This document shows, piece by piece, positions 8,737-38,723 of a DNA stretch of 64,000 nt. A model generated the notes under the pieces. That model saw nothing but the letters and a program-made list of their open reading frames with translations. It searched no databases and had not been told where the DNA came from. Position numbers and translations under genes: made by a program. The DNA comes from a bacterium (lineage in GTDB: Bacteria; Eisenbacteria; RBG-16-71-46): NCBI GenBank assembly GCA_043779265.1, contig JAYWEM010000001.1, positions 11,554 to 75,553 of the forward strand, written 5' to 3'. Numbering within the stretch: position 1 is the first letter of the stretch; the number at the start of each line of letters is the position of its first letter.

Positions 8737-11700
8737 CTACGGAGTCACGACCACCGACCGCGTGGCCGTGAACTCGGAGGCGCGGAGCCGGGCGTAGTAG
8801 AGCCCCGAAGCCACGCGCCTGCCGCCCGCTCCGACGCCATCCCACGTGAACCGGTAGCGTCCTGCGGGCCGCTCCTCTCGAACGATGGTGTGGATGATGC
8901 GTCCCTGCGCATCGAGCACCTCGAGCCTGACCTGGCTTGCGCGAGGAAGATCGACCGCGAACGAGACACGCCCCGATGTGGGATTCGGCAGCGCCGGGCC
9001 CATGGCGAACTCACGCGGAAGGTCCGGATGCTCGACTGCGTTCCGCGATGAAGCCGTGGTGGTGGTGTTGCTGAAGTGGCCCGCGACCTCGAGGAAGAAT
9101 CTCCTCGTCAGCCCCTCGACCGGCGCCGGCGCGGCGAACAGTGCACTCGAAGGACTCTCAGGAGAGAGCACCAGCCCCTCACCATCCTCGGAACCGAGCG
9201 CGGCCACGTTCTCGAGCCCATCAGCCTGTAGCGCCTCGAGGAGATGCGTGGTCGTCGATGGAGCCAGCGAGCTCGCGAGGATGCGATCGAGCCCATGAAC
9301 TCGTGTGGACTGGTCGGCGACCAGCCGAACGCGATCGCCCGCGATCGCCCCGATCCCGAAGGTGTCGATCTTCCGTCTCGGATGGATTCGGCGGATCGTC
9401 TGCCACGCGCCGCCCTGTCTTGCCTGGATGGCGAGACCATCGCCTGTTCCGGCCGAGGCGCGCTCGCACCGAAGCGCGAGGCCCCGGGCTTCTGCGGACG
9501 CCGGCCAAGCGAACTCGAGTGCCTGCCCCGGTGCCATCAGCACGCCGTCCTCGGGCGAGCGGAAGAGGTCGCCGAGACTCACTCCCGACTCATCCAGCAC
9601 GACAGTCGGGGGCTCTGCAGTGCCAGCGAGGATGCCATCGGCTGTGGCGACCACCAGCACCTCGGCCGGGTGATCCACCACATGGAGTCGCATGGCATCG
9701 ATCAGCGCACCACCTCGTGCCGAGGTGGTGAGTCGGACGGCGTAGCGCTCGCCGGTGGCATCGAGCGAGAGATCCGGCAGGCTGGCCAGTTGACGAGCCA
9801 GTGTGCCCGGCTCCACACCGTCGAGGAACGTGTTGCGCTCGGTGAGATCCGATTGGGACGGCAACATGGAGAGGGCCCCGGCTCCACCGCGCCAGCTCAA
9901 CGGATCCCACTCGCCACCGCCACCTCCGCAGAATGGCTGGCAGGGCGGCACACTCTGCTGGATCGTGATCTTCACAACGCGAGTGTCGACGTCGCCGCTC
10001 CCATCGGTGGCCCGGATGATCGCGTAGTGCACACCCGCGGCGGGCTGGGACCAGATGAACTGCCCGTTGTTGATGGCCGAGCCGGCAGGAAGCGAGGAGT
10101 GGACGAAGGAGACCACCTCGCCGTCGGCGTCCGAGGCGTTGACCGCGAACGTGAGGGCGTTGGCGGTCTCTCCCGTTTGGTCGGGGACAGCTAGGACGGG
10201 GGCATGATCGTCGTGGATGCGCTCGATCCACAGATCGATGTCGCCGCTCGACCGATGTCGCCGTTCGTAGGCGAAACGCTGTCCGCTCTTGGACCAGGCC
10301 GGCCTGTCCTGGAAATACTGCAGGTGCTGCGCGCGATAGAACGTGTCCCGAGGGGCGGACAGGGTGTCGAGCATCGCGACTCGCTGGGCGATGGTGCCCG
10401 CGGGACAGCCGAGGAGCGGGTTATCGGGCGCAACGGATGCTCGATTGTTCAACGGTCGTCTGTCGGCGATGAGAATCGGCCCACCTGCAGGATGCGGGTC
10501 GAACCCGGTGAGACCGAATCCGATCGCAGGCTCCTCCGTGAACTCGCCGCCCCAACTCCAGACGCCGTGCAGCCTTCCCCCCTTGCCCTCGAGCGGCATG
10601 AGGATCCGGGTCCCGTCGGCGTTCCATCGCGGCTTGGTGAAGGAGATATAGGTTCCGATCGTATCGATCAATCGATCGCCCTGTCCGTCCAGCCCCACCC
10701 AGCGAAGGTAGGCGAGTTCGCTGTTCGGGGGGATGTGAACATAGGCGACACCCCGCCCGTTGGGCTGGAATGCGGGCATCGTCGCGTGTCCGGGCTGAGT
10801 CGAGATCGCATAGGGGCTCGCCGACGTGTCCGTCGTGGACCGTACGTAGATGGCCCCGGTGGATCCGATCATCGCCTCGAATGCGATCAGGTCGCGAAGC
10901 GGGGACCAATCGGGAGCGTACTGCTTGAAGTTGGTCATTCCGGTTCCGACGAGACGATGGGGCGAACCATCCATCCTTCGCCGATAGACCTTCGGCAGGG
11001 GTGATACGGAGAGGTCGGTGGCGCTGTACGCGATCTCATCGGAGTTCCAGGACCACGCCGGCAGGGCATCCCCGAACCCCGCCACCGCGCTGATGGGACC
11101 CGGAGGGGTGTAGGTGGCGCCCTCCGGGAGCAGCCGAACATCCAACCGATAGGGCACCCGCTCCCCGTATTGGGTCCCGAATTCATTTCCGCCATCGAGG
11201 GTCCCCGACTTGCCGTCCGCCAGAGTCAGCGTGAGGAACGCCGCCTTGTGTGTCGTGCCGAACTCGGGCACCACGATCGAGATCCTGCGACTGTCGAGCG
11301 AGTCGGTGCAGATGCTGTCGAGCGCGGTCGCCATGACCGCGGAGTTCGGGTAGCGGAACAGGTCGGACTCCTCACCCCCTCCATCGATTCGGTCATAGCC
11401 CACGACATTCGCGAGAATGCGAGCGTCCTTGTCCAGGAAGGTCCCGCCCGCGACCACATCGCAGGAGTAGCACTCGGTCGGCGTGATGTTCACGACGAGG
11501 GTCCTCGCGGTGCCGATGAGGCCGCTTGATGGCCGGATCACCCAGTGATTCGCGGCGTAGGGCGCGAGTGCGAGCGGCATCTCGGCGCCGCGGAAGCTGC
11601 GAATTCCCACCAACGTGGTCTCACGGTCGACCTGCGCTGAGCCCAGTTCCAGGATCGCCGGGATCGCGACGATGTCGTCCTCGTCGCAGCCGTCGATCGA

Positions 11701-12984
11701 CTGCCAGGCGCGCAGATGTCGTGCGGGCGAGAACCCGCTCCACGCGGGGTAGCCGAATTGGCTGTCTGCCAGCGCCGCATTGCCTACGAAAGTGGCGACG
11801 CGCCAGTTGTGCAGGAGAGCCCCGAGTCGAGCACGTCTCCCCAGCGGTCCGGCAGGAGTTCTGAAGTAGTCCTTCGATCGGCAGGTCACGCAGCTGTCGT
11901 CGGTCAGGAACGTGCCGAGGCCGTCGAGCGAGGCGTATCCAGCGCTTTTGCGCCACCGGTACATCAGGTCGTCGCGCATGCCGGAGAGCGTGCGAGCAGT
12001 GTCCGCGTTGAGGAAGTTGTAGGCGAGATAGGCCATGAAGGACGTGCGGCCCTGGTAGTTGGAGCGGGACCAGCGATTCGTCCAGCCTGATGATCCGCAG
12101 CCGATCGGATTTCCCTGCGAATCACGGAGCACATTGAGGTTGTTGGCGAGAAGCGGCCAAGTGTAGGGCACCTCCGCCGTCGCGGTGGTGTCGAACACGC
12201 CGCCGACCACCTCGGCGCCGGCGGACCATAGTTCGGAGTAGGACCCGGCGCGTGCCGCTCCGGGGAGGGAGTGCTGGAGTTCGTGGTTCCAGTTCAGGCG
12301 GTGGAGCCCGTGGAGCCTGGTCCAGCCCTCGCCGTCCAGGTCGATGGCGGCCGCCGAATGCGGACCCGTCACCTGCATCGAGTTCGCAGGCCGTACGTCC
12401 CCGTTGGCTCGGCCACTCGAGGCATCCTCATCGAGCGTCGTGAAGTCGGAGGGATAGGTCCCGCCTGTTCCCACGCGAGAGGGATGAACGAGATAGCCGT
12501 CGGCATGCGACCGGTCCTCGTTGGTGAACGTGCTCGCGCCGGTGATGTCCCCGCCATAGCCGACGCGGACCGCGGTGGAATCGCGCGGGTTCGTGGGATT
12601 CCAGTCGCTTCCCTGACGACGGAAGTAGTCGTAGACCACCTGGATGTTCCGAGCGTCAATGGCGATGGGGCTGCCGCCGAGCGCGAGCAGGGCAGCCGTG
12701 AACCCGTCAAGCGTGGCCCGGACCTCGAACGAGAGTGTGTCCGGGTACATCGAGTCCCAGAGATGCTCGACATCGCGAGCGGTCAGATCGATGCCCTTCT
12801 GCCCGGTCCGATGCGGATGGAAGGTCTCGACGCTCGGAACTCCGCCCGACGTGGTCTGCGTCGAGTCCGGGTTCGCTCCGCACGACTCGACCCCCGAAGC
12901 CTCGAGTCGAGCGGGAAGAAACACCAACGTCGCGATGAGCGCTGCGAACGCCGCATTCGCCATGATCGAGTGGGTCCGCCACAT
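8737..12984 (-). CDS. giant secreted multidomain protein (PD40/TolB-like beta-propeller repeats, Ig-like domain, C-terminal sorting-type domain)
   Basis: Signal peptide 'MANAAFAALIATLVFLPARLEAS'. PD40-like repeats ('DWSPLRDLIAFEA', 'WNADGTRIL') and a cadherin/Ig-like segment. C-terminal ~80 aa is shared with three other proteins in the window ('PNP..G...F......V.L.VLD..GR..........G.Y...WDG.......GLYY.RL'). The track ORF extends upstream to 13287; the start is probably ATG 12984 or 12963. Confidence 0.7.
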   Translation of the reverse strand: MWRTHSIMANAAFAALIATLVFLPARLEASGVESCGANPDSTQTTSGGVPSVETFHPHRTGQKGIDLTARDVEHLWDSMYPDTLSFEVRATLDGFTAALLALGGSPIAIDARNIQVVYDYFRRQGSDWNPTNPRDSTAVRVGYGGDITGASTFTNEDRSHADGYLVHPSRVGTGGTYPSDFTTLDEDASSGRANGDVRPANSMQVTGPHSAAAIDLDGEGWTRLHGLHRLNWNHELQHSLPGAARAGSYSELWSAGAEVVGGVFDTTATAEVPYTWPLLANNLNVLRDSQGNPIGCGSSGWTNRWSRSNYQGRTSFMAYLAYNFLNADTARTLSGMRDDLMYRWRKSAGYASLDGLGTFLTDDSCVTCRSKDYFRTPAGPLGRRARLGALLHNWRVATFVGNAALADSQFGYPAWSGFSPARHLRAWQSIDGCDEDDIVAIPAILELGSAQVDRETTLVGIRSFRGAEMPLALAPYAANHWVIRPSSGLIGTARTLVVNITPTECYSCDVVAGGTFLDKDARILANVVGYDRIDGGGEESDLFRYPNSAVMATALDSICTDSLDSRRISIVVPEFGTTHKAAFLTLTLADGKSGTLDGGNEFGTQYGERVPYRLDVRLLPEGATYTPPGPISAVAGFGDALPAWSWNSDEIAYSATDLSVSPLPKVYRRRMDGSPHRLVGTGMTNFKQYAPDWSPLRDLIAFEAMIGSTGAIYVRSTTDTSASPYAISTQPGHATMPAFQPNGRGVAYVHIPPNSELAYLRWVGLDGQGDRLIDTIGTYISFTKPRWNADGTRILMPLEGKGGRLHGVWSWGGEFTEEPAIGFGLTGFDPHPAGGPILIADRRPLNNRASVAPDNPLLGCPAGTIAQRVAMLDTLSAPRDTFYRAQHLQYFQDRPAWSKSGQRFAYERRHRSSGDIDLWIERIHDDHAPVLAVPDQTGETANALTFAVNASDADGEVVSFVHSSLPAGSAINNGQFIWSQPAAGVHYAIIRATDGSGDVDTRVVKITIQQSVPPCQPFCGGGGGEWDPLSWRGGAGALSMLPSQSDLTERNTFLDGVEPGTLARQLASLPDLSLDATGERYAVRLTTSARGGALIDAMRLHVVDHPAEVLVVATADGILAGTAEPPTVVLDESGVSLGDLFRSPEDGVLMAPGQALEFAWPASAEARGLALRCERASAGTGDGLAIQARQGGAWQTIRRIHPRRKIDTFGIGAIAGDRVRLVADQSTRVHGLDRILASSLAPSTTTHLLEALQADGLENVAALGSEDGEGLVLSPESPSSALFAAPAPVEGLTRRFFLEVAGHFSNTTTTASSRNAVEHPDLPREFAMGPALPNPTSGRVSFAVDLPRASQVRLEVLDAQGRIIHTIVREERPAGRYRFTWDGVGAGGRRVASGLYYARLRASEFTATRSVVVTP

Positions 12985-13114
12985 GTGCACACCCCCTGTG
13001 CTTCGGGCTCTCGAGCCCGTGTCCTGCGAACGGCTCCCGTCATCACGCGGTGATTGCAGGAATGCGAGATGCCGGAACGAGTGAGCTCGTTCGCTAAGAC
13101 GAAATATGGCTTTC

Positions 13115-13125
13115 GGGGGGGGGGG
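13115..13125. repeat. homopolymeric G11 tract in a divergent intergenic region
   Basis: 'tttcGGGGGGGGGGGcaagg' between the start of the giant minus-strand protein (~12984) and the plus-strand secreted gene at 13149. The flanking sequence is locally AT-rich. Confidence 0.8.
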
Positions 13126-13148
13126 CAAGGTCAAGTAACATCTCGAAC

Positions 13149-14891
13149 ATGTGGTGTCTGGGCGTTGGACTCTCGACGGGGCGGCGCTCGCGGCGAATCG
13201 CGCGGCTGGTGCTGACCGCTGTGCTGGCAGGTTCGGCACTCTCGCCTTCGGGAGCCGACGCGCTCCCCAGTGGCAGGGCATGGACACCGATCGACACGCT
13301 TCGGATCCATGGCCATCCGTACATGGCGGCAGAGAGGCTCGATACCGACTCCGCGGATGACCTGCGACTGATCGTCACCGGACAGTACGGGCCGGGTGAT
13401 GGCGCCTACGGGATGAAGTGGGCGGACAGCGCTTGGGTCGAGACGTGGTCGGGCATCCTGGACAACTACATCATGTGGCCGACGTCATCACCGCGCGACG
13501 AGCGAATGCTCGTCTGGAAGACCACGGTGCCTCCGGTGGGGCGGCGGAGTCACCTCGTGACGGCAACGGCCTTCGGCGACTCCATCTCGGCGCCCGATAC
13601 GGTGGCGGTGTGCGATGTCGAAGCCTTCATGTACACGGGCGCGGTCTGGGGCGACACGCGGTGGGTCGCGGTGCGGGACCTGGACAACACGACGCTTGGC
13701 TTTCCCTTTCATCTGCGAGTGTATCGCTCTCGAGCCTCAGAGCCGTGGACGCTCGTTCGCGACGAACACCTGGGCTTCTTCGGGGTCCGGGGCATCGCGA
13801 TGAGAGCGCTGGACTCCACCCGTGTCCTGATCGTGACCGCGAATCCGGACTTTCGAGTCCACTGGGGGGTGCTAGCGGACACGAACTGGAGCGTCTCGAA
13901 CTCGGCCTTGAGCGCCCAGGCGCTGGTGAACTCTCCTCAGTTCAGGGCGAATCCGGATCGAAGCGACTGGCTTGTCTGGGCACAAGGCGATCGTGGGATC
14001 TACGCGAACCGCCTGAGTGGAGAGGCCTGGGTCCAGACGGACACCCTACTCTCCGCCTTTCCCGACGGCTTGCGCTGGAACTTCTTTCAGCCCTACGTGA
14101 GCAAAGACTCCCATCCGTATCCCGCCGTTGCCTGGCACGGATTCAGCGACGCGAAACTCATCGACCACGTCTGGGTCGCGTTCCCGAACGACTCGGGCTT
14201 CGGTATCGGTGAGAAGCTCGATGGCACGGCGTTCGGCTACTTGCCGCAGGTGGCTCGCGACGAGAACGGCGACGTATGGGTGGCATTCTCGCGTGATCTG
14301 GCGGGGGCGTTCTGGCTGCACACCCATGCGACCGCGACGACGAGCGTGCCGGAGGTGGTGGAACTCGGTGGCCGGCCGCTCGTGCGCTGGTCGCTCAGCG
14401 TGCCGAGCCCCGAGACATGGTGGGCGGTCGAGCGAGCCGTGGGGTCTGGCGAGTTCGAGGTGGCGGCGCGCGTGCGAGCCACGGACGAGCAGGCGATGCA
14501 GTGGCATGACACGACGGGGCCAATGGATCAGCCGCTGCGCTATCGCATCCGCCGCGAGAGCAAGGACGTGCGGTATCGGTGGTGGAGCGAGGAGGCGGCC
14601 TGGGAGGTGCGCGGGCCGGTGCTGCGATTGAGCCGGGCGGGTGCCCATCCGGCGACCGAGGCGATCGAGTTCGAGGTCACGGGAGCCGCCGCGGGCGCGC
14701 TCACCATGCGGCTGCACGACCTGCAAGGGCGGCTGGTGCTGACCCGGCCGATCGTCGCCGCGGGCACGGCACACGACATCGTGCGCGTGCCCTTGGCGGG
14801 CACGTCGCTGCGGCCGGGGCTCTACCTGCTCAGTGTGCGGGGTGGCGACGGACGCAAGTCGGCCGGCCTGAAGGTCGCGGTGGTTCGCTGA
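13149..14891 (+). CDS. secreted hypothetical protein with C-terminal sorting-type domain
   Basis: Signal peptide 'RIARLVLTAVLAGSALSPSGADA'. C-terminus 'MRLHDLQGRLVLTR...GLYLLSVRGGDGRKSAGLKVAVVR' matches the shared tail domain. Confidence 0.6.
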   Translation: MWCLGVGLSTGRRSRRIARLVLTAVLAGSALSPSGADALPSGRAWTPIDTLRIHGHPYMAAERLDTDSADDLRLIVTGQYGPGDGAYGMKWADSAWVETWSGILDNYIMWPTSSPRDERMLVWKTTVPPVGRRSHLVTATAFGDSISAPDTVAVCDVEAFMYTGAVWGDTRWVAVRDLDNTTLGFPFHLRVYRSRASEPWTLVRDEHLGFFGVRGIAMRALDSTRVLIVTANPDFRVHWGVLADTNWSVSNSALSAQALVNSPQFRANPDRSDWLVWAQGDRGIYANRLSGEAWVQTDTLLSAFPDGLRWNFFQPYVSKDSHPYPAVAWHGFSDAKLIDHVWVAFPNDSGFGIGEKLDGTAFGYLPQVARDENGDVWVAFSRDLAGAFWLHTHATATTSVPEVVELGGRPLVRWSLSVPSPETWWAVERAVGSGEFEVAARVRATDEQAMQWHDTTGPMDQPLRYRIRRESKDVRYRWWSEEAAWEVRGPVLRLSRAGAHPATEAIEFEVTGAAAGALTMRLHDLQGRLVLTRPIVAAGTAHDIVRVPLAGTSLRPGLYLLSVRGGDGRKSAGLKVAVVR

Positions 14892-14894
14892 TCT

Positions 14895-15332
14895 CTACGC
14901 CGCCAGGCGCTTGGTCATCGCCAGGGTGTTGCGGCCGGCGGCGGAGCGATACTCCACGTGATCCATGATCGAATGGATCAGATGCAGTCCCATGCCGCCC
15001 TCGGGCAGGTTCGCGGTGTCCGCCGGGTCGAACTCGAATCGCGGCCGCTGCGGCCCGCGATTGGGAGCGCCCGCATCGCACACTTCCACATTCAGTTCGT
15101 CTCCCTGATGCACGAACGACACCATCACCACGTGCCCGGGTTCGAGGCGATAGGCGTGGCGGATCACGTTGTTGATGGCCTCGACCAGCGCCAGTTCGAC
15201 GAGCGCCGAGGCGCGCTGCTCGAGGCCCGCCTCGATGCACAGCGCCTTCAGCGCGCGTGCCGCGAACTGGACCTGGTCGAGCCGACTGTCGAGTCTCAGC
15301 TCGATCCGCCGCGGCCGGGGGGCGTTGCTCAT
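14895..15332 (-). CDS. anti-sigma regulatory factor, RsbW/SpoIIAB-like Ser/Thr kinase (HATPase_c)
   Basis: 'VELALVEAINNVIRHAY...VCDAGAP...GGMGLHLI' are GHKL ATPase motifs in a 145-aa protein. Start ATG overlaps the upstream phosphatase gene's stop (ATGA). Confidence 0.75.
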   Translation of the reverse strand: MSNAPRPRRIELRLDSRLDQVQFAARALKALCIEAGLEQRASALVELALVEAINNVIRHAYRLEPGHVVMVSFVHQGDELNVEVCDAGAPNRGPQRPRFEFDPADTANLPEGGMGLHLIHSIMDHVEYRSAAGRNTLAMTKRLAA

Positions 15333-16504
15333 GCCGCCCTCCGCTCGAGCCCGAGCAGCGTGACGTCGTCGGGGAAGTGGTCGCTCGCGCTCCAGGCGCG
15401 CAGATCGTGCTCGATCGCCGAGACCGTGGCGTCGAGCGAGTGCGAGCAGCCCTCGCGCACGGCCTGCTCGAGCCGATCGATCAGGAACGGCCTGCGCTCG
15501 GCGTTCGGACACTCGGTGACGCCGTCGGAGTAGAGGAACAGCCGATCGCCGGGGGCGAACGGGTGCGTCTCCTCCTCGAACGTGAGTCCCGGCAGCATGC
15601 CGATCGGGAATCCCGATTCGCCGATCCGCTTGAGCTCGCCGCCTCGCGCCAACACCGGCGAGGGATGTCCGCCCTGCGCGATCGTGAGTTGGTCGGTCTC
15701 GGCGTCGATCAGCCCATAGAGGATCGTGAAGTACTTCATCGAGTCGACGTCCGCCTGGAAGCGGTCGTTCAGTTCGGCGAGCACCTGCGCCGGCGGCAAC
15801 GGCAGCATGCGCCCCTTGGCGGTACTTCTCAGCAGCAGGCCCTCGGGCGACAGCATCTTGCTCAGGGAGAACGACAGCATGGCCGAGGAGACGCCGTGGC
15901 CGGCGACATCGAGCAGGTAGAAGGCGGTGAATCGCGCGCCCAGCGCGTGCACGCCGAATACGTCGCCTGCGACCATGTTGGCCGGATGCAATCGCCACGA
16001 GGATCGGACCGCCGGCCACTCCTGTCCTGGAGGGGGTAGCAACGTGCGCTGCAGACTGGCGGCGGCCTCGAGATCGGCGCGCGAGGACTCGAGCGCTTCG
16101 CCGAGACGGCGGCCGCGCTCGGCGAGATCGCTCTCGAGTTTCAGGACGCGCTCGCCGGCTCGCACCCGGGCTCGCAGTTCCTCGGCTTGGAACGGCTTCT
16201 CCATGAAGTCATCGGCGCCGGCATCCATTCCCTCGACCAGCGCGGCGACACCGCTGCGCCCGGTCAACAGCACCACGTACGTGTAGCCCGAGCACTGGCC
16301 GGCGCGGATACGGCGCGTCAGTTCGATGCCGTCGACGCCGGGCATCATCCAGTCGCTGATGACCATCCGGAACGGCTCGCTCTGGTAGAGCGCCCAGGCC
16401 TCCTCGCCGTCTCGCGCGACCACGACCTCGTGACCCCATTGCGTGAGGGTGCGGGTGAGGATGAGCCGGATGACGGATTCATCGTCCGCGACCAGGATGC
16501 GCAC
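15329..16504 (-). CDS. response-regulator receiver fused to PP2C/SpoIIE-type phosphatase (RsbU-like)
   Basis: Receiver 'RILVADDESVIRLIL...ISDWMMPGVDG', then PP2C motifs 'DVAGHGVSSAML' and 'DGVTE'. A GTG start near 16504 is more plausible than the track's extended 16705. Confidence 0.8.
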   Translation of the reverse strand: MRILVADDESVIRLILTRTLTQWGHEVVVARDGEEAWALYQSEPFRMVISDWMMPGVDGIELTRRIRAGQCSGYTYVVLLTGRSGVAALVEGMDAGADDFMEKPFQAEELRARVRAGERVLKLESDLAERGRRLGEALESSRADLEAAASLQRTLLPPPGQEWPAVRSSWRLHPANMVAGDVFGVHALGARFTAFYLLDVAGHGVSSAMLSFSLSKMLSPEGLLLRSTAKGRMLPLPPAQVLAELNDRFQADVDSMKYFTILYGLIDAETDQLTIAQGGHPSPVLARGGELKRIGESGFPIGMLPGLTFEEETHPFAPGDRLFLYSDGVTECPNAERRPFLIDRLEQAVREGCSHSLDATVSAIEHDLRAWSASDHFPDDVTLLGLERRAA

Positions 16505-20274: not shown

Positions 20275-22785
20275 TCAGCGGAGTCGCGCGATGCGCGTCG
20301 AGCGCACGCCCGTCTCCGTCACGAGCCTCGCCAGATAGAGGCCCGGCGCGAGCAGGCGGCCATCCGCGCCACGCCCATCCCAGCGCACGAGATGCTCGCC
20401 CGGGGCATGAACGCCGCGGGCGAGTGAGGCGACTTCGCGACCGGCCAGATCATGCACGCTCAGCGAAGCCGCGCCCGCTCGCGCCAGCGAGAAGCGCAGC
20501 GTCGTCTCGCCCGATGCTGGATTCGGCCACGGCGCCGAGAGTCGGAGCGAGCGATCCGACAAGGCGGACGGCGCATCCACCAGCGCGGCGGGGCCCAGCA
20601 CCAGCAGGCCCATCGCGGGCAGCGCGACCTCGATCGACTGATTGAAGCCGTCCCACGAGATCGGTTCGGTCGAGAGCAGTCCTGGGTTCACGGGGCCGGC
20701 TCCCATGTAGGCCGGGGCCTGGCTGTTCACCAACTCGCTCCATCCGCCCGCGATCGGCATGCCGACTCGCACCGTGAGCGGGCTGTTGGCGAACGAGGCG
20801 ATCACCATGACCGACTGGCCGCTGCCATCGAAGCGGCGGAAGGCGATCCAGTTGGCGCCCTCATCGACCCGCGACACGTAGATGCTGCTGGAGGCGCGCA
20901 GCGGCGCGATCGATCGCCGAAGCTGCATCAGCTGCTGGTGATAGGCGAAGATGCCCGCGTAGGTCGTCTTCTTGCCCCAGTCGATGCGGTTGCCGGGATC
21001 CGTGCCGAAGTCAGCGCTCTCGAGCCACTCGTCACCCTGCAGCAGCGCCGGGACGCCGGGAGCGGTGAGCAGGAGTCCGGTCGCGAGCTTCATGCGGCCC
21101 TTGGCGTACTGGTCGTCGTGCGGGGCCGTGGTGTCGATGGTCTTCACCAGCCGCTGTCCGCCACTCGTCGGCCAGGCCTCGTCGTGGAGCTGGAAGTAGT
21201 TGAGCGCCTTGCGCCCGCTGATCGCCGCGCCGCTGCCCAACAGCGCCGAGCGGATCGAGTTCATGTTCGGGTCGCCAAGGCCCGCCGCGAGGATCGCTCC
21301 CCGCACCGCGTCACGGAACTGCATGTGGTACTGCGCATCGAACCCGGCACCGCCGCCCGACGTGGGCGAGGAGGTGGCGGCATTGTTCGGCAACTGCTCC
21401 GCGACGACGAACGCCTCGCCGCGGCGGCGGTCGATCTCATCATTCATCCGCTGCATCAGCGACCAGCCGGCGGCCGACTGCGCGCCGATCGTCATGTACG
21501 ACGTGGCGTCCATGCGGAAGCCGTCCAGCCGGTACTCCTCCAACCACAGCAGCGCACTGTCCGCGAAGTAGTCGCGCACCGCGGCGCGATCGAAGTCCGC
21601 CTGGGCACCCCACGGCGTGTCGATGTGCGGCGTGTCGAAGTACTGTTGCGAGCCGTCGTAGTTCCACAGCCAGTTGCTGTCGACCGTGAAGTGGTTCCAC
21701 ACGATGTCGAGCGTGACCGCGATGCCGTTCGCGTGGAAGCGGTCCACCATGTACTTGAGGTCATCCGGCGTCCCGTACTTCCACTCGGCGGCCCACTGGG
21801 TGATCGGGTTGTAGCCCGCCGAGAGGTCGCCGGGGAACTCGGTGATGGGACACAGCTGCACGCAGTTGATGCCGAGCGCCGCCAACTGGGGGGCGCGATC
21901 GCCCGCCGCCCGGTAGCCGCTCGGATGCGCGACGCCGCCCTGGGGATCGTTGAGGCCCGAGAACGTGCCCAAGTGGAGCTGATAGACGATGAGCGATTCG
22001 GCATCCGGGGTCACGAATGAATCGCTCGTCCACACATAGCGCAGCGGATCCTCGATGTGCGTGTTGCGATCGCTCTGCGCGTTCAGCGAGCGGCCGCGTG
22101 CGTCCATGTTCCACGTCAGGTTGTTGAAGAAGTACTTGTACTCCGAACGATCCGCGACGCCCGCGGCACGCACCACGAAGTGCTCGCCCTGTTTGATCAT
22201 CGGGGTGCCGAGTCCCCACGCGTTGAAAGCGCCTCGGACATGGGCTGTCGTGCTGGTGGGCGCCCAGACCTTGAAGACCGCGCCGCTTCCGCTCACCCGC
22301 GTCGCTCCGACCGGAGCGTGCGACAGCGTCGCGAAGTCGACGACGAAGTCGCTCCCGACCGGCACGCCGTCGGTGACGCCTGCGAACGAGAGGTAGTCGA
22401 GGTCGCCGCCGTCCTGGAGCTCGACGTGATACGTCACGAGTGCGGTCGGCAGCGTCGCCGGCACGTTCGCCGACCAGATGTCGTAGAACCCGCGCGTGCC
22501 CACCTTGGCCGCCTCGATCACCACCGGCGCCCCGGCCACGGTGGCGCGGACCCGGGCCGAGCTCAGGTCATTGCGGTAGGCCTGGAATCGGACCGCGAAG
22601 GATTCGCCATCGACCGGGCAGAGCGGGCGGCGATCGAGACGCTCGATATGCGAGAGCCCATTCCACTCGATGTTCCCGTCATTGCCGGCCGCGTGCGCCG
22701 CCTGCATTCCAGCCGGCAGAAGGGCCAGCCCCGCGATCAGCAGGGGCAGGGCGAGCGAAGCGTCTCGAGCGCGCGGTCGGGGCAT
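20275..22785 (-). CDS. secreted GH13 alpha-amylase-family enzyme with C-terminal sorting-type domain
   Basis: Signal peptide 'MPRPRARDASLALPLLIAGLALLPAGMQAAHA'. GH13 motifs 'VWNHFT', 'GFRMDAT', 'FQLHDE'. C-terminal tail 'LSVHDLAGREVASL...GLYLARLVTETGVRSTRIARLR'. Confidence 0.8.
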   Translation of the reverse strand: MPRPRARDASLALPLLIAGLALLPAGMQAAHAAGNDGNIEWNGLSHIERLDRRPLCPVDGESFAVRFQAYRNDLSSARVRATVAGAPVVIEAAKVGTRGFYDIWSANVPATLPTALVTYHVELQDGGDLDYLSFAGVTDGVPVGSDFVVDFATLSHAPVGATRVSGSGAVFKVWAPTSTTAHVRGAFNAWGLGTPMIKQGEHFVVRAAGVADRSEYKYFFNNLTWNMDARGRSLNAQSDRNTHIEDPLRYVWTSDSFVTPDAESLIVYQLHLGTFSGLNDPQGGVAHPSGYRAAGDRAPQLAALGINCVQLCPITEFPGDLSAGYNPITQWAAEWKYGTPDDLKYMVDRFHANGIAVTLDIVWNHFTVDSNWLWNYDGSQQYFDTPHIDTPWGAQADFDRAAVRDYFADSALLWLEEYRLDGFRMDATSYMTIGAQSAAGWSLMQRMNDEIDRRRGEAFVVAEQLPNNAATSSPTSGGGAGFDAQYHMQFRDAVRGAILAAGLGDPNMNSIRSALLGSGAAISGRKALNYFQLHDEAWPTSGGQRLVKTIDTTAPHDDQYAKGRMKLATGLLLTAPGVPALLQGDEWLESADFGTDPGNRIDWGKKTTYAGIFAYHQQLMQLRRSIAPLRASSSIYVSRVDEGANWIAFRRFDGSGQSVMVIASFANSPLTVRVGMPIAGGWSELVNSQAPAYMGAGPVNPGLLSTEPISWDGFNQSIEVALPAMGLLVLGPAALVDAPSALSDRSLRLSAPWPNPASGETTLRFSLARAGAASLSVHDLAGREVASLARGVHAPGEHLVRWDGRGADGRLLAPGLYLARLVTETGVRSTRIARLR

Positions 22786-37059: not shown

Positions 37060-38723
37060 GAGCGCGGCATCTTCTCGCGAGCTTGTCGATAACGGCGCTC
37101 ACGATGGGCCCGGTCGCCTTCTCGCAAGCGGCCACCATCGTCATCATCAACAATGACGGTGCCGGAGAGGGGTTCAACGATCCGACGCCTGTTGCACCCA
37201 TCGGCGGCAATTCCGGGACCACGCTGGGGCAGCAGCGGCTCAATCTGTTCAACCATGCGGCGAGCCTGTGGGGCGCCATGCTCGACAGTCCGGTCACGAT
37301 CCAGGTGCGGGCGCAGATGAATCCACAGACCTGCACGCCGACCAGTGCCGTACTCGGGAGCGCGGGGCCGGTCACGGTCCACGCCAGCTTCCCAGGCGCG
37401 ATCGTCACCGGGGCCTGGTACCACCAGGCGCTCGCGAACAAGCTCACGGGATCGGACCTGGATGGTGTGAATCCCGACATCAACACGACGTTCAACTCGG
37501 ATGTCGACAACCCCACGTGCCTGGGGACCCGCAACTGGTATTACGGGTTCGATCACAACGAGGGCATCCACATCGACTTCCTGCCCGTGTTGATGCACGA
37601 GCTGGGACACGGTCTCGGCTTCAGCACGACGACCAGCAGCTCGACGGGCAACTTCATCTCCGGACTGCCCGCGATCTGGGACCATTACCTGATGGACAAG
37701 ACCTCGGGACTGTTGTGGAAGGACATGTCCGCGGTGCAGCGCCAGGCCTCCGCGATCAACACCGGCAACCTGGTGTGGACGGGGCCGGCGGTGCGCTTCA
37801 AGGCCCCGCTCGTGCTCGTACGTGCGGCGCAGTTGTCGGTGTCCGCACCGGGCGGGATCGCCGGAACCTATGAGGCCGGGCTCGCCAGCTTCGGTGCGGC
37901 GCTGACCGACGCGGGGCTTTCGGGTCAGGTCGTGCTCGTGGACGATGGCTTGGTGCCGACCGGCGAGGGCTGCGAGTCGCCGTTCGTCAATGCCGGTGCC
38001 GTCGCCGGCAACATCGCGCTGATCGACCGCGGCACGTGCGCTTTCACGCTCAAGGTGCTCAATGCCCAGAATGCTGGCGCGATCGGTGTGATCATCGCCA
38101 ACAACACGTCGGGCGCTGCAGCGCCGACGGGTACCGACCCCGCGATCACGATCCCCGTGCTCGGCATCTCGCAGGCCGACGGCAACCTGCTCAAGGCGAA
38201 TCTCGGCGCCGGCGTGCAGGCCACGCTGCGGCTCCACCCGAGCCAGCGTGCGGGAACGCACCCGGATGGTGAGATGCGCATGTTCTCGCCCAACCCGGTG
38301 CAGAGCGGCTCGAGTGTGTCGCACTTCGATGTGACCTCGACACCGAACCTGCTCATGGAGCCCTCGATCAACGCCGATCTGACGGCCGCGATCGACCTGA
38401 CCCGCGAGCTGTTCGAGGACATCGGCTGGTATCCGGCCACGACGGGTGTGCCCACGACGGCACCGGGCACGATCGCGCTGGCGGCGGGCCCCAACCCGGC
38501 CGGCCGCGACGTCACGGTCCGATTCGCACTCGATCGCGATGCGACCGTGGAGGTCAGCGTGCTGGACGTGGCGGGGCGCGAGGTCGCGAAGTTGCACCGC
38601 GGTCGCCTCGGTGCCGGCCCGCATGTGATGGCGTGGGATGCGCGGGTCGCCCCCGGCGTCTACCGCGTCCGCCTGCGTGCGGATCGGGCGGTCAGCACGC
38701 GCAGCATCGTCCGAGTCGACTGA
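37056..38723 (+). CDS. secreted zinc metalloprotease with PA domain and C-terminal sorting-type domain
   Basis: Signal peptide. 'HELGHGLGF' (HExxH). PA domain ('IALIDRGTCAFTLKVLNAQNAGAIGVIIANN'). C-terminal tail 'VSVLDVAGREVAKL...GVYRVRLRA...RSIVRVD'. Confidence 0.75.
   Translation: MRARHLLASLSITALTMGPVAFSQAATIVIINNDGAGEGFNDPTPVAPIGGNSGTTLGQQRLNLFNHAASLWGAMLDSPVTIQVRAQMNPQTCTPTSAVLGSAGPVTVHASFPGAIVTGAWYHQALANKLTGSDLDGVNPDINTTFNSDVDNPTCLGTRNWYYGFDHNEGIHIDFLPVLMHELGHGLGFSTTTSSSTGNFISGLPAIWDHYLMDKTSGLLWKDMSAVQRQASAINTGNLVWTGPAVRFKAPLVLVRAAQLSVSAPGGIAGTYEAGLASFGAALTDAGLSGQVVLVDDGLVPTGEGCESPFVNAGAVAGNIALIDRGTCAFTLKVLNAQNAGAIGVIIANNTSGAAAPTGTDPAITIPVLGISQADGNLLKANLGAGVQATLRLHPSQRAGTHPDGEMRMFSPNPVQSGSSVSHFDVTSTPNLLMEPSINADLTAAIDLTRELFEDIGWYPATTGVPTTAPGTIALAAGPNPAGRDVTVRFALDRDATVEVSVLDVAGREVAKLHRGRLGAGPHVMAWDARVAPGVYRVRLRADRAVSTRSIVRVD

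Follow-up and report, generated by a model that had tools for sequence, protein, structure and literature searches.

A 64,000-nt stretch of contig JAYWEM010000001.1 (assembly GCA_043779265.1), from a bacterium of the Eisenbacteria, contains two divergent genes coding for secreted-type proteins and, between them, an uninterrupted run of 11 guanines (the G11 tract). We refer to the whole stretch as the window, and coordinates are positions in it unless they are given with the name of another locus. The tract is intergenic, 23 nt upstream of the start codon of the rightward gene (ATG 13149, plus strand) and 130 nt upstream of the start codon of the leftward gene (ATG 12984, minus strand). An initial annotation of this DNA had described the run at exactly the positions found here (Table 1), between two divergent genes and in a locally AT-richer setting. 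All three statements hold, the last one because the flanks of the tract have about 40% GC against 68% in the window.

Table 1. Features of the divergent gene pair and of its intergenic region.
Feature	Positions	Strand	Description
1415-aa secreted protein gene	8737..12984	-	Signal peptide, HELQH (HExxH) at residue 234, PD40/TolB-like propeller, Big_9, C-terminal FlgD_ig
Shine-Dalgarno-like GGGGGTG	12990..12996	-	5 nt upstream of the large-gene ATG; conserved in all five orthologs
Predicted conserved hairpin, 5' end of the large-gene leader	13026..13094	-	RNAalifold and single-sequence folding
Candidate -10(-) CATATT	13103..13108	-	20 nt from TTGACC
Candidate -35(+) TTTCGG, weak	13111..13116	+	19-nt spacer to TAACAT; aligned by eye and by script; weakest assignment
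G11 homopolymer (C11 on minus)	13115..13125	n/a	Central shared spacer of the predicted bidirectional promoter; proposed slippage-prone switch
GGTCAAG box	13129..13135	both	Plus: conserved CAAG box abutting -10(+); minus, 13129-13134: TTGACC, near-consensus -35 of the putative leftward promoter
Predicted -10(+) TAACAT, rightward promoter	13136..13141	+	10 nt downstream of the tract, 7 nt upstream of ATG 13149
580-aa secreted protein gene, probably leaderless	13149..14891	+	Signal peptide, sialidase/lectin-like beta-propeller, Ig-like domains, C-terminal sorting-type tail

The G11 tract is a genuine outlier and not an effect of base composition. It is the only run of G or C longer than 7 nt in the window, which otherwise holds three runs of G7 and 14 of G6 or C6. 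Base composition alone predicts about 0.6 runs of at least 11 nt per window. The decay of run lengths and Markov simulations make such a length very rare: each further base multiplies the number of observed runs by 0.21, so that 0.007 runs of at least 11 nt would be expected on extrapolation, and only 0.5% of order-3 Markov simulations reached a run of 11 with the tract itself kept in the training data. Its length is also above the requirement of about 8 nt for slipped-strand mispairing in mononucleotide repeats. A two-colour-chemistry poly-G sequencing artefact was ruled out as the origin of the tract itself, because it is internal to a 191-kb contig, keeps its position across independent samples and is replaced by poly-C or poly-T in some relatives.

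The reading frame of the leftward gene bears directly on what the tract could do. The initial annotation had given this gene as 1516 aa, and that length was not borne out. It corresponds to the maximal open reading frame (ORF), which reaches through the tract to GTG 13287 and overlaps the plus gene by 139 nt; such over-calls come easily in GC-rich sequence, which is poor in stop codons. In all four close orthologs the GGGGGTG motif is followed after 3-6 nt by an ATG and a signal peptide, three of the four have an in-frame stop between this conserved ATG and the tract, and the annotation of the source contig also calls the gene as 1415 aa. Comparison with the orthologs consequently marks ATG 12984 as the real start of the minus gene and the 1516-aa ORF as an over-extension. 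Were the longer frame translated, the tract would lie inside it and frameshifts would toggle the protein. That the fourth ortholog (L002) reads through, like the window, fits such a translational switch, but the overlap with the plus gene, the stops, the common start arrangement and the source annotation all stand against it, as do tract lengths in the orthologs that do not preserve frame, and we regard it as very improbable.

Both proteins have signal-peptide-like N-termini, and the view that both genes encode secreted or surface-type products is upheld by these and by the FlgD_ig domain of the large protein, which scored 48.3 bits over a Pfam cut-off of 27. The C-terminal sorting-type tails attributed to both proteins fared less uniformly. 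FlgD_ig passed its cut-off in the large protein only, and the Por_Secre_tail model for type IX secretion system sorting (TIGR04183, NCBIfam cut-off 23) fell just short in both, at 20.8 bits in the large protein and 19.8 bits in the 580-aa protein; PF18962 is a precomputed match on several homologs of the latter. The 580-aa protein itself had no Pfam match. Its AlphaFold model, built with 25 homologs, reached a predicted local distance difference test score of 86.8 and consists of a signal helix, a beta-propeller and beta-sandwich domains, and a Foldseek search with this model returned bacterial sialidases and propeller lectins with probability 1.0 and a low whole-chain template-modelling score.

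The gene pair was compared across about 60 related loci, 27 non-redundant promoters of which formed the promoter alignment. A protein search returned 41 homologs of the 580-aa protein, from metagenome-assembled genomes (MAGs) labelled Candidatus Eisenbacteria or Eiseniibacteriota, and at essentially every locus with upstream sequence the divergent partner of the gene encoded a homolog of the large protein (27-84% identity). The pair is present in 2-4 copies in several MAGs, and every copy has a tract of its own; the window has one copy. As judged by these alignments, a module made of an HExxH/PD40/FlgD_ig gene and a beta-propeller gene of about 580 aa, in divergent orientation around a quasi-palindromic promoter, is deeply conserved in Candidatus Eisenbacteria.

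A homopolymer occupies the orthologous position in these promoters. The run is G11 in the window and in L002, G9 in L003, G6 in L004, G12 in L005 and G7 in L009, and in L006 and the equivalent L010 it appears as G16 and G19 on the two sides of an N-gap (at least 16-19 nt, at a scaffold gap). More distant members have G8-G12, C6-C14 and, once, T8, and L050 has an interrupted A-rich run; in intact assemblies the homopolymer measures 6-14 nt. The run stays uninterrupted at loci whose proteins are only 30-70% identical and whose tract base changes among G, C and T. Furthermore, 370 kb of non-redundant related DNA contained 34 runs of at least 8 nt, and all those of at least 9 nt lay at this promoter, leaving aside assembly junk at the L006 gap. 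The motif TCAAGTAnnnT likewise occurs once in the window, at the tract. Since this motif and the long runs are confined to one site, the architecture is specific to the gene pair and does not represent a genome-wide style of promoter. A run that remains uninterrupted over deep divergence, whose base is exchanged while the run stays, in genomes where long runs are otherwise avoided, argues for selection on the homopolymer itself.

The promoter elements described here were predicted in silico from conservation. Their general layout is -10(-), CTTG, homopolymer, GTCAAG, -10(+). The -10(+) hexamer has the consensus TAnAAT, with A at position 2 in 27 of 27 promoters and T at position 6 in 26 of 27. 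The start codon of the conserved protein, an in-frame ATG or GTG, comes only 6-8 nt after -10(+) at about 19 distinct loci, and for this reason the rightward gene is probably leaderless in most members of the family. On the minus strand, TTGAC(n) beside the tract is kept in nearly all loci. Upstream of the tract, relatives have cTTGnn after an A-rich block, and the window has the weaker CTTTCG. A minus-strand module nnAG-n-nAnnnT, with hexamers such as GATTTT and TATTTT (CATATT in the window) at a fixed 1-nt offset from the (C)AAG box, was present in 19 of the 27 promoters as against 2% of shuffled flanks.

Together, these alignments suggest a quasi-palindrome, in which two back-to-back promoters would have their -35 and -10 elements interdigitated around the tract. 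Viewed in silico, the region has one repeat shared by both spacers of two overlapping divergent promoters. The conserved -10(+) on one strand and TTGACC and CATATT on the other flank the tract and do not lie far from it. We infer that transcription starts at the predicted sites, near 13149 rightward and near 13096 leftward (about 7 nt beyond CATATT), and that the leftward promoter is functional. The promoter becomes visible only when related loci are compared, as a simple scan of 12800-13400 for the sigma-70 consensus and for terminators gave no match. Counts of TTGACn-N-TAnnnT over 439 kb of these genomes yielded too few matches to set a preferred spacer. We also considered CTTGAC...GTCAAG as a hairpin or operator and dropped the idea; its arms are only 4-6 nt long, and the covariation between TTGC...GCAAG and TTGA...TCAAG is inconsistent across clades (L013, L014, L046-L048).

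A different arrangement, which we hold to be possible but doubtful, is that the tract serves the rightward promoter alone and the large gene uses a separate one, the minus-strand matches being by-products of the CAAG box and of an A-rich element resembling an UP element. The -10(+) hexamer is indeed the most strongly conserved element and has independent support from the leaderless ATG, the minus-strand spacers, at 19-22 nt, are on the long side for sigma-70, and the A-rich block that precedes -35(+) may represent an UP element. This arrangement would nevertheless have to accommodate a divergent pairing that is phylum-wide, a TTGAC that is nearer to consensus than -35(+), and the minus-strand hexamer, whose fixed offset and frequency far exceed those in shuffled flanks. 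Visual inspection of the intergenic region in distant loci revealed no further promoter-like module that was conserved.

The distance between the elements is more constant than the tract. Over 19 promoters the plus spacer measured 17 nt in 2, 18 nt in 10, 19 nt in 4, 20 nt in 2 and 21 nt in 1, despite tracts of 6-14 nt. The minus spacer is one nucleotide longer, giving family modes of 18 (+) and 19 (-); the window, with 19 and 20, is one above the mode. In L046, L047 and L048 the 18-nt spacer is kept with pure runs of G8, G9 and G10, and what distinguishes the three is confined to point substitutions in the initial one or two nucleotides of the tract (GAGGGGGGGG, CGGGGGGGGG and GGGGGGGGGG). 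At the level of sequence comparison this shows tracts worn down or lengthened by point mutation under a constraint on length. Some members of the family have no long tract at all (L055, L067, L026 and the second copy in L024).

Such observations could be expected if the tract were a structural filler, for example a stiff GC-rich segment, whose length drifts slowly in a neutral or compensated manner and does not switch within populations. The strong constraint on the total spacer whatever the tract length, the edge substitutions in L046-L048 and the relatives that work without a long tract all agree with a static spacer. Any sequence would serve to fill a given length, yet a pure homopolymer has been kept through the divergence of the proteins and the exchange of its base, and this in genomes where long homopolymers are otherwise strongly avoided. 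Furthermore, the tract is the sole difference between assemblies in one lineage and in two others varies amid very few single-nucleotide polymorphisms (SNPs), as detailed below. We consider a static spacer unlikely.

The comparison of tract lengths rests on related lineages, as the window locus supplied no independent copy: three contigs carry a protein identical to that of the window, two of them had been merged as duplicates, and the same assembly, in its NCBI version, probably accounts for one. Lineage P0014, which has the same divergent pair, is represented by 10 independent assemblies from different runs (3.0-4.7 kb), six with G12 and four with G11 and with no other difference. In P0025 (5 assemblies) three have G9 and one G8, one contig begins inside the tract, and the three closest contigs differ by one SNP. 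The two assemblies of P0015 (1.9 kb) have G12 and G11 and one SNP elsewhere. The tract was invariant in P0008 (C5G6; 3 assemblies, two SNPs) and in P0019 (G7; 2 assemblies, no other difference). Tracts of at least 9 nt thus varied by 1 nt in three related lineages, and those of up to 7 nt did not vary. Tract length in relatives of the window is consequently non-uniform at two scales, between near-identical assemblies and between orthologs, where it extends from G6 to G12 and to at least G16-G19.

The assemblies themselves tend to fail at this site. The contigs of L007, L008, L012, L033, L066 and L089 have an end within the tract or next to it; L007 and L008 are Logan contigs of the same species as L006 and begin in the tract or just after it. 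In L006 (GCA_964568385.1, CAZMQP010000036.1, 5616-5800; L010 is the same) the N-gap at the tract position is flanked by G16, C8, C14, C25 and G19, and these poly-C and poly-G runs are assembly junk made at the homopolymer. Ten contigs (L035-L044), from different Sequence Read Archive runs and, judging by accessions alone, from several projects, are identical over 3.0-4.7 kb save for the tract. Clonality of this kind is unusual for a soil organism, and could reflect a very widespread clone, related sampling sites or carry-over between samples.

Illumina sequencing is known to have a high error at poly-G/C runs of at least 8 nt, with 22 of 31 such tracts located at contig ends (PMC4235727). The tract could accordingly be real and the G11/G12 and G8/G9 differences, as well as the contig breaks, be products of sequencing error and of the assembler. 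The scaffold junk in L006/L010 would fit this, and a restriction of variation to tracts of at least 9 nt is what error predicts too. Such an origin would, on the other hand, require a wrong consensus in 4 of 10 assemblies, and both alleles recur over many sequencing runs. Differences of several nucleotides between species, with conserved flanks, cannot be error. An artefact would, moreover, touch the evidence for variation and not the place of the tract in the promoter. We judge it improbable as the explanation of the length differences.

The reading that we find fairly probable from these comparisons is that the G11 tract is a slipped-strand phase-variation switch, located in the spacer of two overlapping divergent promoters and co-regulating both secreted proteins. 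The switch suggested by the initial annotation is supported in this form by promoter elements that bracket the tract and by lengths that vary in related lineages. The tract would be the common spacer of two sigma-70-type promoters, in the 5' to 3' order -10(-) (reverse complement of CATATT), n, CTTT, G11, CAAG, GTCAAG and -10(+) TAACAT. The rightward promoter would direct transcription from ATG 13149 or from beside it, so that the mRNA of the 580-aa beta-propeller surface protein would have no leader, and the leftward promoter (-35 TTGACC, -10 CATATT) would give the 1415-aa HExxH/PD40/FlgD_ig protein a transcript whose leader measures about 110 nt. Slipped-strand mispairing at replication would add or remove one G and so alter both spacers together, from the 19 and 20 nt that they have at G11. 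The -35 and -10 elements would thereby be displaced with respect to each other, and transcription of both genes would go up or down in a heritable and reversible manner. This scheme presumes that tract length really does change in vivo, and at a high rate, and that expression is altered as a result, both of which we infer from the sequence comparisons.

Several points weigh against this switch. The variation was seen in related lineages only and not for the window's own G11, and the 1-nt differences, coming from low-coverage metagenome assemblies, are possibly technical, owing to Illumina homopolymer error. Their dependence on tract length is expected under hypermutability and under sequencing error alike. 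The relatives without a long tract indicate that it is dispensable for the promoter, and L046-L048 speak for selection on length and are silent on mutability. Within the window, the -35(+) candidate is poor (TTTCGG), and the consensus scan was empty. Finally, the predicted spacers of 18-19 and 19-20 nt exceed the 17-nt optimum of E. coli sigma-70, which is possibly not that of the Eisenbacteria polymerase.

Extended to the whole group, the proposal would be that the Eisenbacteria, uncultured and living mostly in soil, have phylum-wide, multi-copy divergent surface-protein pairs, each under a quasi-palindromic bidirectional promoter with a hypermutable homopolymer spacer, and for this generalization we see an about even chance.

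The closest analogue, by likeness of function, is the combined divergent promoter of hifA and hifB in Haemophilus influenzae (van Ham et al. 1993, Cell 73:1187; reference 37 in PMC4235727). A repeat in the shared spacer of the two overlapping hifA and hifBCDE promoters sets, through its length, the expression of both sides. At the present locus, too, the tract is enclosed by the -35 and -10 elements predicted for either direction. It is an analogue and not a member of the hif family, because the hif repeat is TA and the hif genes are fimbrial: here the repeat is a mononucleotide G/C run and not a dinucleotide, and the predicted cargo is a beta-propeller protein and an HExxH protein with a FlgD_ig-type tail. 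Furthermore, hif is a single locus of a host-adapted pathogen, whereas the pairs described here form a multi-copy family in an uncultured soil phylum.

Unidirectional examples are more numerous. In Mycoplasma hyorhinis each vlp gene has a poly-A tract between its -35 and -10 elements, and Bordetella fim2 and fim3 have poly-C tracts. The vlp system resembles the Eisenbacteria MAGs with 2-4 pairs in being a surface-protein multigene family with a promoter tract for every copy and combinatorial ON/OFF expression; both vlp and fim2/fim3 differ in the base of the repeat, in the proteins, in phylum and in having unidirectional promoters. The promoters of Neisseria meningitidis opc, whose poly-C tract lies within the core promoter spacer and gives graded expression according to its length, and of porA, which has an equivalent poly-G tract, are unidirectional, single-copy and from a human commensal and pathogen, whereas the promoter predicted here would be bidirectional with a leaderless rightward gene. 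The homopolymeric T-tract of Helicobacter pylori sabA, which adjoins the -35 element and is not part of the core spacer, works by way of DNA geometry; the tract described here lies inside the predicted spacers. Control of the SabA adhesin has been attributed to a repetitive DNA element acting by a rheostat-like mechanism (PMC4081817), so that such tracts can act as rheostats rather than as ON/OFF switches. For opc, PMC3960869, citing Sarkari et al. 1994, describes a variable poly-C tract in the promoter of this surface-protein gene that leads to variable expression by a transcriptional mechanism.

The mechanism is known, and the novelty lies in where it is proposed: in an uncultured soil phylum, at a conserved pair with several copies, and in a bidirectional promoter with a leaderless start. 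Almost all that is understood of phase variation by simple repeats comes from host-adapted pathogens, and the present locus is a candidate, defined by its sequence, from a soil phylum. A 2025 review counts the bacteria of soil and ocean among the gaps in what is known of phase variation (PMC11868660), and our literature search found no paper linking Eisenbacteria with phase variation. If the switch exists, it would be a simple-sequence contingency-locus system in a free-living, uncultivated soil lineage, with combinatorial and heritable ON/OFF expression of a secreted beta-propeller protein together with an HExxH/PD40 protein, which might plausibly serve escape from phages or predators, or hedging between lifestyles of attachment and degradation. 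The alignments also provide a candidate promoter grammar (CTTG, tract, GTCAAG, TAnAAT, leaderless start) that would control a conserved secreted pair. On the practical side, these tracts break contigs and produce scaffold-gap junk in Eisenbacteria MAGs, and they cause over-extended ORFs such as the 1516-aa version of the 1415-aa gene.

Other features of the locus concern the two genes and their surroundings. The HELQH motif of the large protein lies in an N-terminal region (residues 1-500, 11500-12984 on the minus strand) that has no Pfam, NCBIfam or PDB sequence match; the PDB search, made with the N-terminal 695 aa, returned nothing. This region may be an unclassified secreted metalloprotease domain.

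The leader of the large gene is predicted to be structured. RNAalifold, run on 5 orthologs, predicted 31 pairs across the whole leader, 7 of them with compensatory changes, and the hairpin at its 5' end has a single-sequence minimum free energy of -29.9 kcal/mol (z-score -2.78). A search of the intergenic region, including this hairpin, against Rfam gave no match. The hairpin may be a conserved element of the leader's 5' terminus that contributes to stability or to regulation. A conserved GGAAC at 13073-13077 was considered as an extracytoplasmic function sigma factor element and rejected; it has no consistent -10 at 16-17 nt and lies inside the leader hairpin.

In L009 (380-410) the tract with its promoter (G7, CAAGGTCAAGTAACAT) adjoins a 100-aa FlgD_ig C-terminal fragment on the minus strand, which replaces the usual 5' end of the large gene; this junction reflects a rearrangement at the tract, or else the short contig is a chimera.

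The window holds no paralog of either gene, only two unrelated FlgD_ig-like tails (20323-20553, minus strand, and 38490-38711, plus strand), about 38% identical to that of the large protein; they belong to other secreted proteins and have no long homopolymer nearby. Downstream of the 580-aa gene (14895-16400) lie genes for an anti-sigma-type kinase (HATPase_c_2) and a Response_reg/SpoIIE phosphatase, which make up a partner-switching module, followed by a DUF4301 gene, and the order of this module and of the DUF4301 gene is syntenic in the ortholog L003 (7577-9186).

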